The notes below the pieces were generated by a model. It was not told the origin of the DNA. It saw only the letters and a program-made list of their open reading frames with translations, and did not search any database. From contig JAJZPE010000004.1 of NCBI GenBank assembly GCA_021811325.1, forward strand, positions 1 through 63,376: a stretch of 63,376 nt of DNA, written 5' to 3'. Below, one piece after another: positions 5,924 through 7,153 of this stretch (its first letter is position 1; each line of letters opens with the position of its first letter). Source of the DNA: Bacillota bacterium (GTDB lineage Bacteria > Bacillota > Sulfobacillia > JAJYWN01 > JAJZPE01). A program made the translations under genes and the position numbers.

Positions 5924-7153
5924 ATGAGCCGGACGCTGCGGATCGAGCGGATCGACCGGACCCGGGGGCACGGTGCCCTGACGGTCGATATCAACAGCGG
6001 CCGAGACATCCGGGTCAGCCTGCAAAACCGGCAGGGGGTCCGCGGGTTCGCCAACCTGCTCGTCGGTCGCCACCTGGAGGAGGTCCCGAGCCTCGTCGCC
6101 AGGGTCTGCGGTAATTGCTCCTATGCCCACCGGCTGGCGGCGGTCGTGGCCATCGAGCGCGGCCTCGGGCTGCGCCCGTCCAGGCAGACGCGGCTCCTGC
6201 GCGAACTGGCCTACCACGGGCAACTCATCGCCAGCCATAGCTTCCACCTGTATGTGCTGGCCCTGCCCCACTACCTCGGGGGCGAAGGCTTTCTGAGCAT
6301 GGCCGAGCGCTTCCCGGAGCACGGCGAACGGGGCATCAACCTGCACTGCCTCGGCAACCAGATGGAAGAGGGCATCGCCGGACGCGTGCCGCACCCGCCC
6401 AACCCCGTGCCGGGCGGCTTCACCCGAGCTCCCGACCCCGAGGAACTGCTCAAGCTGCGCTGGTCGCTCCAGCGCCACCTGAGAGACGCCGAGAAGACAT
6501 TGCTCACCTTCAGCCGCCTCGACTACGGGCCGGTCCCGGGGGTCGACGCGGAGTTCTGGGCGGTCAAGCCGAAGGGCCGGAGCTACGGCTACCTCGGTTT
6601 CGACTTCAGCGAGTCATCCGGCCGGACTATCCCCTTCGACCAGTACGAGCAGATCCAGAAGGACGGCCGCCAGGTCCAGGTGGGGCCGCTGGCCCGGCTC
6701 AACCTCTTCTCGTCCAGGCTCACGCCGCGGGCCAAGGAGCTGTTCAAGCGGGCCGACCTCAAGCTTCCCTCGGCCAACCCCTTCCACAACTACCTGGCCG
6801 AGTCCATCGAGCTCGTCTTCAGCATGGAGCGTTCCCTCTGGCTTATCGACACACTGCTCAAGCGGGGTATCCATAGCGAGAAGACCCCGGCTGTCAGGCC
6901 CAAGGCCCGGCGGGCCCTGGCGGCCATCGAAGCCCCCCAGGGGACCCTCGTCCACGACTACGAGTTCGACGAGGCCGGACTGGTGAGCAAGGTCCGCATC
7001 ATCCCGCCGGTCGTCTACAACCAGCCGCTCGTCGCAGCGCAGGTGCGCGAGGCGGCCAGGGTGGCCACGGCGGGCTCCGACGAGGGGCTGACGTCCTTCC
7101 TCAAGCAGATCATCCGGGCCTATGATCCCTGCTTCTACTGCGGCAGCGTCTGA
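5924..7153 (+). CDS. [NiFe]-hydrogenase large (alpha) subunit homologue, group 3b-like, atypical active site
   Basis: RVCGNCSYAH (L1), SHSFHLY..LP, NPFHN and RAYDPCFYC (L2); colinear with Pyrococcus-type alpha subunits. Confidence 0.8.
   Translation: MSRTLRIERIDRTRGHGALTVDINSGRDIRVSLQNRQGVRGFANLLVGRHLEEVPSLVARVCGNCSYAHRLAAVVAIERGLGLRPSRQTRLLRELAYHGQLIASHSFHLYVLALPHYLGGEGFLSMAERFPEHGERGINLHCLGNQMEEGIAGRVPHPPNPVPGGFTRAPDPEELLKLRWSLQRHLRDAEKTLLTFSRLDYGPVPGVDAEFWAVKPKGRSYGYLGFDFSESSGRTIPFDQYEQIQKDGRQVQVGPLARLNLFSSRLTPRAKELFKRADLKLPSANPFHNYLAESIELVFSMERSLWLIDTLLKRGIHSEKTPAVRPKARRALAAIEAPQGTLVHDYEFDEAGLVSKVRIIPPVVYNQPLVAAQVREAARVATAGSDEGLTSFLKQIIRAYDPCFYCGSV

Follow-up and report, generated by a model that had tools for sequence, protein, structure and literature searches.

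The βγδα operon and its large subunit

The window analysed here is the stretch of 63,376 nucleotides at the start of contig JAJZPE010000004.1 (Bacillota), and it falls within an 88-kb contig of the spore-forming Bacillota metagenome-assembled genome (MAG) GCA_027327795.1. It carries an operon for a four-subunit complex (β, γ, δ and α) of the group 3b [NiFe]-hydrogenase type. This report concerns that complex and in particular its large subunit α, the product of an intact open reading frame (ORF) of 409 residues with an ATG start and a TGA stop (Table 1).

Table 1. Features of the operon and its surroundings, given in window positions.
Feature	Positions	Strand	Remarks
Rex-box-like palindrome TTGTGAAGTTTTGCACAG	3119-3136	+	overlaps the -35 element of the βγδα operon promoter
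Promoter-like site TTTGCA-17-TATAAT	3128-3156	+	only strong σ70-like site of the region
β subunit, AsrA/ShyB-like polyferredoxin	3251-4312	+	apparently intact; NCBIfam ShyB/HydB 262-264 bits
γ subunit, PyrK/AsrB-like	4309-5166	+	FAD-domain motifs kept; [2Fe-2S] Cys motif (5059-5085) kept
γ, rebuilt NAD(P)H motif AEGLYANA	4681-4704	+	
γ, rebuilt NAD(P)H motif AGE	4960-4968	+	
δ, small subunit	5201-5911	+	three proximal-cluster Cys plus Asp (SCGGDQ, 5261-5278)
α, large-subunit homologue	5924-7153	+	last gene of the βγδα operon
α codon R14	5963-5965		
α codon Q37	6032-6034		
α codon A43	6050-6052		
α codon C62	6107-6109		
α codon N64	6113-6115		
α codon C65	6116-6118		
α deletion site	6653-6688		
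α codon Q339	6938-6940		
α codon V363	7010-7012		
α codon C403	7130-7132		
α codon C406	7139-7141		
α codon V409	7148-7150		
α stop codon	7151-7153		
DRTGG-domain protein	7213-7593	+	starts 59 nucleotides after α
RsbW/SpoIIAB-like HATPase	7577-8035	+	
Sensory-type [FeFe]-hydrogenase homologue, HydS-like	8036-9403	+	SSACP for TSCCP; C-terminal PF04060 iron-sulfur domain
Second DRTGG, PHP phosphoesterase, NuoE-like, HATPase, 123-residue unknown, NuoF-GltD HydB, HydA	9437-16827	+	in that order
NuoF-GltD fusion HydB	12031-15069	+	1012 residues; in the first HydABC set
HydA	15079-16827	+	
Second HydABC set, aspartase-like gene, HydF	up to 24040	+	

The motifs of α were placed by HMMER against group 3b chains in the PDB, by MAFFT with relatives and by MAFFT with HyaB, the Escherichia coli Hyd-1 sequence, and all three alignments put them at the canonical positions without gaps. 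Residues Cys76, Cys79, Cys576 and Cys579 of HyaB correspond to Cys62, Cys65, Cys403 and Cys406 of α, which lie in the motifs RVCGNC (residues 60-65) and DPCFYCGSV-stop (401-409), and all four are retained in every orthologue. His229 and Asp574 correspond to His157 and Asp401, both of which are retained, as are His69 and Leu112. The remaining motifs read DRTRGHG (residues 11-17), RGFA (40-43), EAPQG (336-340) and IPPVVYN (360-366), and with the C-terminus they hold most of the replacements: the proton-relay Glu is Arg14 (HyaB E28), a further relay Glu is Gln37, the Mg-site Glu is Ala43, the gas-gate Val is Asn64 (V78), the canopy or pendant Arg is Gln339 (R509), the cyanide-facing Thr is Val363 (T532) and the terminal His is Val409 (H582). 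Asp116 is absent as well. With translation ending at CGSV, both the terminal His/Arg Mg ligand and the C-terminal tail, which in most catalytic large subunits is removed by a protease of the HycI/HybD type, are missing, and a deletion of about 15-19 residues, common to all orthologues, has removed the segment known as 'HS.AK' in group 3b enzymes.

An earlier reading, made from the letters alone (the sequence-only reading), had listed the four intact cysteines, the changes of the relay and Mg-site Glu, of the canopy Arg, of the Thr and of the terminal His, the absence of a cleavable tail, the 'HS.AK' deletion, an intact ORF with normal codon use, and the absence of maturation genes, and every item on this list was recovered here by alignment, orthologue comparison or gene content. 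The codon usage of α is normal (GC content at third codon positions 0.91; cosine 0.95 relative to the neighbouring genes). No hyp or hycI gene was found within the 63-kb window; the NiFe(CN)2CO cofactor of catalytic large subunits is the product of HypA-F. Seven contigs, each from a different sample set, were not needed to see this, but seven contigs of varied sample origin all encode the very same α protein, which excludes an assembly artefact.

Two further explanations of the unusual features of α were considered and rejected. The deleted segment did not carry the His oriented towards the proximal cluster (H229 in Hyd-1), because H229 maps to the retained His157. Neither is the TGA a selenocysteine codon or a read-through site leading to a hidden tail, since the orthologues stop at TGA or TAG and the peptides encoded downstream are unconserved.

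Despite its replacements, α is a recognisable member of its superfamily. The Pfam model NiFeSe_Hases (PF00374 superfamily) matched it with 64 bits (cut-off 25.8), the alignment covering only residues 40-113. The scores against the NCBIfam group 3b equivalogs were 221 bits for ShyA (cut-off 700) and 201 for HydA (cut-off 880), and the β, γ and δ subunits likewise scored under the cut-offs of their own equivalogs. The closest solved relatives of α are the group 3b large subunits 5yxy from Thermococcus kodakarensis and 9e15 and 9nez from Pyrococcus furiosus SHI, which align from end to end (PDB match 1e-57). The AlphaFold2 model of α is confident (predicted local distance difference test, pLDDT, 92.5; predicted template modelling score, pTM, 0.93) and superimposes on the α subunit of P. 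furiosus SHI (9nf0_H) with a template modelling (TM) score of 0.94 and a root-mean-square deviation of 2.0 Å.

Conservation, partner subunits and relatives

The positions replaced in α are among the most constant ones in 217 canonical relatives, where the relay Glu is found in 94%, the Glu at position 37 in 92%, the Mg-site Glu in 94%, the Arg in 99%, the Thr in 97% and the terminal His in 96%. None of the 217 lacks both the Glu and the Arg. Otherwise this joint absence was seen only in the present family and in the proteins P0121 and P0181, and since the relatives missing both residues are only other degenerate lineages, the replacements in α are far beyond chance.

Orthologues of α make up four further clusters at 90% identity (98, 78, 74 and 71% identical to α, the next match falling to 34%), and together these proteins are referred to below as the clade. 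Every orthologue has Arg14, Gln37, Ala43, Asn64 and Gln339, a hydrophobic residue at position 363 and Val or Ile at the C-terminus. Canonical relatives have 47 positions with a conservation of 85% or more; the clade retains 36 of these, has a changed but invariant residue at 5 and varies at the other 6. Pairwise ratios of nonsynonymous to synonymous substitution rates (dN/dS) for α were 0.14-0.29, not near the value of 1 that the sequence-only reading had associated with decay, and the small subunit and neighbouring genes gave values in the same range. Judged by these substitution patterns, the loss of residues in α is coordinated, fixed and under purifying selection, and it is to be read as a change of function rather than as the decay of a pseudogene.

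The β subunit matches that of P. furiosus SHI (9nez_B) with 241 bits and retains all 15 of the Cys columns conserved among the β subunits compared. In γ, on the other hand, the nucleotide loops have been rebuilt, from GGLGxAP to (A/S)EGx(Y/W)xxx and from CGP to AGE, in 6/6 clade sequences versus 0/115 relatives. The single changes are G126 to Glu, G129 to Tyr or Trp and P220 to Glu, again in all six clade sequences. In the 115 other homologues G126 and P132 are each kept in 114, G129 and P220 in all 115, and the full GGLGxAP motif in 114. In line with this, among the matches listed the Pfam domain NAD_binding_1 (PF00175) was matched by none of the five clade γ orthologues and by each of the 115 other γ homologues. 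The δ subunit retains all eight Cys of the medial and distal clusters and shows a clade-specific deletion of about 20 residues after GGV (5492-5533). As far as can be judged from the ligand residues, the H2/H+ end of the complex (α) and its NAD(P)H end (γ) are both altered, and the electron wire between them is kept.

The Asp of SCGGDQ in δ, which takes the place of a proximal-cluster Cys, was examined as a further part of the rewiring and rejected, because the nearest canonical group 3b operons (contigs L017 and L018, with hycI/hyp) have SCAGDQ. Asp for the second Cys of the proximal CxxC is a trait of the whole branch of Clostridia-type canonical group 3b small subunits (L017, 6390-7139; L018, 9233-9985).

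More distant members of the family were sought with a clade profile against 1.84 billion representative proteins and in two word-index searches, one of them with the family alignment. The whole family amounts to six clusters at 90% identity among 5.8 billion sequences, and the searches added only P0084 and P0239, here called lineage B. The representative genomes of GTDB held no clade member, and the JGI metagenomes no clade contig beyond the one already known. A degenerate-codon scan for E-x-P-Q-G-T-x-x-H-D-Y returned one genome, the lineage B Bacillota MAG FK3.bin120. Literature searches yielded no account of such a family, and it is very rare and apparently undescribed, residing beside genuine hydrogenase operons in uncultured Bacillota.

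Lineage B shares with the clade the change of Arg to Gln (as ELPQG), the loss of the relay Glu (here to Gly or His) and the 'PP' before the Thr position, and its α terminates three residues past the last Cys. The motifs W..QRHLRDAE and KPKG(R/K)(S/T)YG(Y/H)LG occur in both lineages and were otherwise unseen, and lineage B likewise has a degenerate γ nucleotide site and a shortened δ loop. The two lineages were joined in 96.5% of neighbour-joining (NJ) bootstraps, beside the Clostridia-type canonical group 3b enzymes. At the gas-gate position (Hyd-1 V78) lineage B has an Arg, so both lineages have lost the pendant Arg and seem to have gained another Arg at a different place beside the metal site.

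The genomic neighbours of lineage B are related to hydrogenases in both cases with readable downstream DNA. L017 (439-8451) has a degenerate β'γ'δ'α' operon and, immediately downstream of it, a canonical group 3b βγδα operon that is followed by hycI and hypABFCDE; the δ' gene was missed by the gene caller and is readable at about 2371-3093. On L022 (FK3.bin120, 3897-6549) a tailless α' is followed by an overlapping gene for a divergent HycI-like protein of 261 residues with an insertion of about 100 residues, and then by HdrC-like and HdrB-like (two CCG) genes. P0081, the nearest canonical relative of the family, has hycI, hypA and hypB right after α (L018), where the clade has none. Because lineage B, with the same Arg-to-Gln change and loss of Glu, adjoins hycI-like and hypABFCDE genes, the family may still receive a NiFe cofactor; at the least, these surroundings argue that the ancestor of the family still received one.

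The proteins P0121 (a group 3b-like large subunit with the Glu changed to Asn, the Arg to Ala and one Cys to Ser, and no tail) and P0181 (group 3b-like, with all four Cys lost) were tried as family members and rejected, being degenerate and phylogenetically independent.

Promoter and genomic setting

The spacer upstream of β has a GC content of 43%, versus 67% for the window. Its Rex-box-like palindrome was the sole match in the window, where 0.38 matches would be expected by chance. The promoter and palindrome block is conserved in the orthologous contig L007 at a synonymous divergence of about 0.7, and the palindrome there, TTGTGAAGGATTTCACAG, is a better match, with one mismatch from the consensus. 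Rex has a known consensus and acts at hydrogenase operons of Clostridia. No Rfam family, riboswitches and leader RNAs included, matched between 2900 and 7300, and no terminator was detected directly after α. Consensus scans of the + strand found no further σ70-like site between 3128 and 25233 and no convincing terminator before about 24984.

The order βγδα-DRTGG-HATPase-HydS is identical on every orthologous contig. In the HydS-like protein the relay Cys is Ala (SSACP), the other motifs read FITPCAAK and EAQACIGGC, there is no PAS domain, and the gene is flanked by those for DRTGG, HATPase and PHP proteins. Both catalytic-type [FeFe] HydA paralogues (15079-16827 and 19503-21230) have TSCSP for TSCCP, the relay Cys being Ser, with MPCTAK and EIMCCPGGC intact. 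The HydB fusion joins a NuoF-like part to a GltD/NfnB-like NADPH-flavoprotein domain. In Nfn enzymes PyrK-like proteins are paired with GltD-like subunits, and the GltD domain of this HydB is therefore a candidate partner of the nucleotide-less γ.

Directly upstream of the operon (278-3000) lie genes for an amidohydrolase, a DUF917/thiohydantoin-desulfurase-like protein, a DUF1177 protein and AroM, conserved in two diverged contigs (L001 and L007). Elsewhere in the window (35741-39400) a cyanophycinase (Peptidase_S51) and a cyanophycin synthetase form a pair, in what is a fermentative spore-former. On contig L013, whose source is this organism or a close relative of it, genes for a serine recombinase and for helix-turn-helix (HTH) and Peptidase_M78 proteins lie downstream of spoVG (11796-18451) and form a mobile or prophage-like insert.

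Possible functions and comparison with known systems

We tentatively favour, without calling it probable, the reading that the complex is a hydrogenase-derived redox relay or sensor-like module without NAD(P)H-linked H2 turnover. The βγδα complex would derive from a Clostridia-type group 3b [NiFe]-hydrogenase in which both working ends were rebuilt and then fixed by selection, and it would no longer turn over H2 with NAD(P)H. The pocket of four cysteines would still house a redox-active metal site, with a relocated basic residue (Arg14 in the clade, the Arg at the Val78 position in lineage B), and this site would trade electrons with γ via δ and β. Because there is no nucleotide exit, γ would have to use a protein partner, either passing electrons to it or being read by it. 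The complex would be made together with the HydS, DRTGG, HATPase and PHP regulators and the [FeFe] HydABC proteins from one Rex-type promoter, and its role would most likely be that of a slow relay responding to redox state or H2, and thereby of an accessory to the [FeFe] system that resembles a sensor, and not that of a bulk catalyst.

Several observations point this way. PMC10430524 singles out two outer-shell residues as crucial for activity, the relay Glu and the pendant Arg, the latter being called 'strictly conserved', and since both are missing ordinary H2 catalysis is unlikely. An NAD(P)-linked turnover hydrogenase is very unlikely, because the complex has lost this Glu and Arg, two more relay Glu, the Mg site, Asp116 and the NAD(P)H site of γ. 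On the other hand, the four cysteines and all cluster ligands are under purifying selection, which argues that the metal site is still functional and wired. A tie to H2 metabolism is suggested by the genuine hydrogenase operons that the family adjoins and by the apparent co-transcription with the HydS, regulator and [FeFe] cluster.

A number of points weigh against a relay or sensor. None of the four subunits has a PAS, kinase or HTH output domain, and no direct link to the regulators was seen. A sensor role cannot be family-wide, since lineage B does not lie beside regulators, and a complex with many iron-sulfur clusters is costly for a relay. The co-transcription is drawn from simple consensus scans, and the Rex-box match is insignificant alone, at least one match being found in 33 of 100 shuffles. 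The phylogeny is by NJ only, with both lineages on long branches where long-branch attraction is possible. Finally, the metal site is a prediction from its ligands, and the absence of hyp applies to the 63-kb window.

At lower confidence, the family may represent a pocket of four cysteines with a metallocentre or second sphere unlike those of characterised hydrogenases, wired to a flavo-iron-sulfur chain free of a nucleotide site and acting either as a new type of [NiFe]-derived sensor that governs the expression of the [FeFe] enzymes or as an enzyme for a substrate other than H2.

The main rival of the relay or sensor-like module is a new redox enzyme whose metallocentre would be of another kind or modified (Ni-only, Fe or FeS, or a NiFe centre lacking hydrogen-bonded cyanides). 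It would act on a substrate other than H+/H2 in a pocket made more polar and cationic (Arg14, Asn64 and Gln339), and a protein partner would feed it electrons by way of γ and β. The residues that replaced the canonical ones are fixed and not random, and the clade has lost the two residues with side chains pointing at the cyanides, together with the Mg site and the tail. With hyp and hycI missing from the 63 kb, the entire electron wire kept, and the HdrC- and HdrB-like (CCG) genes after the sister operon on L022 suggesting another acceptor module, such a conversion is conceivable, and it has a precedent in MBH, which evolved into the sulfane reductase MBS. However, the data name no candidate substrate or partner, the sister lineage beside hycI/hyp points to a NiFe cofactor, and the cyanides could still be held by backbone amides; we consider a new enzyme somewhat unlikely. 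To the sequence-only reading the coordinated loss had suggested both a changed function and another type of metallocentre (Ni-only, Zn or FeS). The coordinated loss and the changed function stood up to the analysis, and nothing here shows a different metallocentre.

It is improbable that the complex is still a working [NiFe]-hydrogenase, in which Arg14 would act as base or relay and Gln339 in the canopy, maturation would be by hyp genes from other parts of the genome, and ferredoxin or some other carrier would substitute for NAD(P)H. The four cysteines, His69, His157, Asp401 and Leu112 are kept, the fold of the AlphaFold2 model is intact, lineage B adjoins hyp and hycI, and the lack of a tail is shared with the active large subunits CooH, Ech and HoxC. 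Yet three relay Glu, the Mg site and Asp116 were lost together, and no canonical relative misses both crucial residues. Even the conservative exchange of Arg for Lys, on its own, lowers turnover by about 50-100-fold, a loss of some 98% of the activity (PMC10430524). A decaying pseudogene or sequencing artefact, as the many lost catalytic residues and the low ShyA score might suggest, is refuted by the identical ORF on seven contigs and its intact counterparts in four diverged orthologues, by the fixed changes and the dN/dS values, and by the normal codon use and confident model.

The interest of the complex is twofold. Public databases label α as 'nickel-dependent hydrogenase large subunit', and with this label of an ordinary hydrogenase metagenomic surveys of H2 metabolism will miscount it. 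Moreover, the relay Glu and the pendant Arg, the latter strictly conserved, are held to be indispensable, and here both are naturally absent, as are the Mg site and tail of α and the NAD(P)H site of γ, although the four cysteines and the electron wire remain under purifying selection. The complex would set a natural example beside the engineered variants E28Q and R509K and show how a [NiFe] pocket behaves once its canonical second sphere is gone, and a sensor of [NiFe] origin or a new catalytic role for the fold could come to light.

The nearest known systems are the group 3b enzymes (P. furiosus SHI, T. kodakarensis Hyh and, closest, the Clostridia-type P0081 and P0082), which have the same βγδα order, the four cysteines and the β clusters. 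They provide the closest sequence and fold matches (5yxy, 9nez and 9nf0), and their Clostridia-type branch has the same δ cluster ligands, with CxxD as the proximal motif. In contrast to them, α is only 34-39% identical and lacks the relay Glu, the pendant Arg, the cyanide-facing Thr, the Mg site, the terminal His and the tail. Both α and δ carry deletions, γ is without NAD(P)H motifs, and hycI/hypAB do not follow α as they do on L018.

The regulatory hydrogenases of group 2b (HoxBC, HupUV) resemble the family in their tailless large subunit and an altered gas-gate position next to Ni, as well as in the low turnover expected and the linkage of the genes to regulators of another hydrogenase. 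These sensors lack the C-terminal tail, still have the Glu and the Arg in place, and use a PAS histidine kinase for signalling. The present α, however, is derived from group 3b, where its nearest relatives lie, it is part of a complex of four subunits, and its gene neighbours encode DRTGG and RsbW-like HATPase proteins and not a PAS kinase.

The putative sensory [FeFe] enzymes HydS (groups C/D) follow the same logic, in that metal ligands are kept and proton-transfer residues are replaced; HydS gave up its proton-relay Cys. An SSACP gene of this kind lies 0.9 kb downstream of α in the same apparent transcription unit. The fold and cofactor are unrelated, and the likeness is by analogy only.

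A change of function has also taken place in other homologues of the [NiFe] large subunit, namely the hydrogenase-derived MbxL/MbsL, Ehr and, in complex I, NuoD/Nqo4, none of which has a NiFe site. These proteins lost some or all of the four cysteines, whereas the present family keeps all of them in every member and is of the soluble group 3b type, as opposed to the membrane complexes related to group 4.

The last comparison is with the engineered variants E28Q and R509K of E. coli Hyd-1 and R479K of Hyd-2, which are altered at the same two positions and show what such changes cost (PMC10430524). Unlike these variants, the changes in the family are natural, combined and fixed by selection, and they come together with an additional Arg close by and with the changes in γ and δ.

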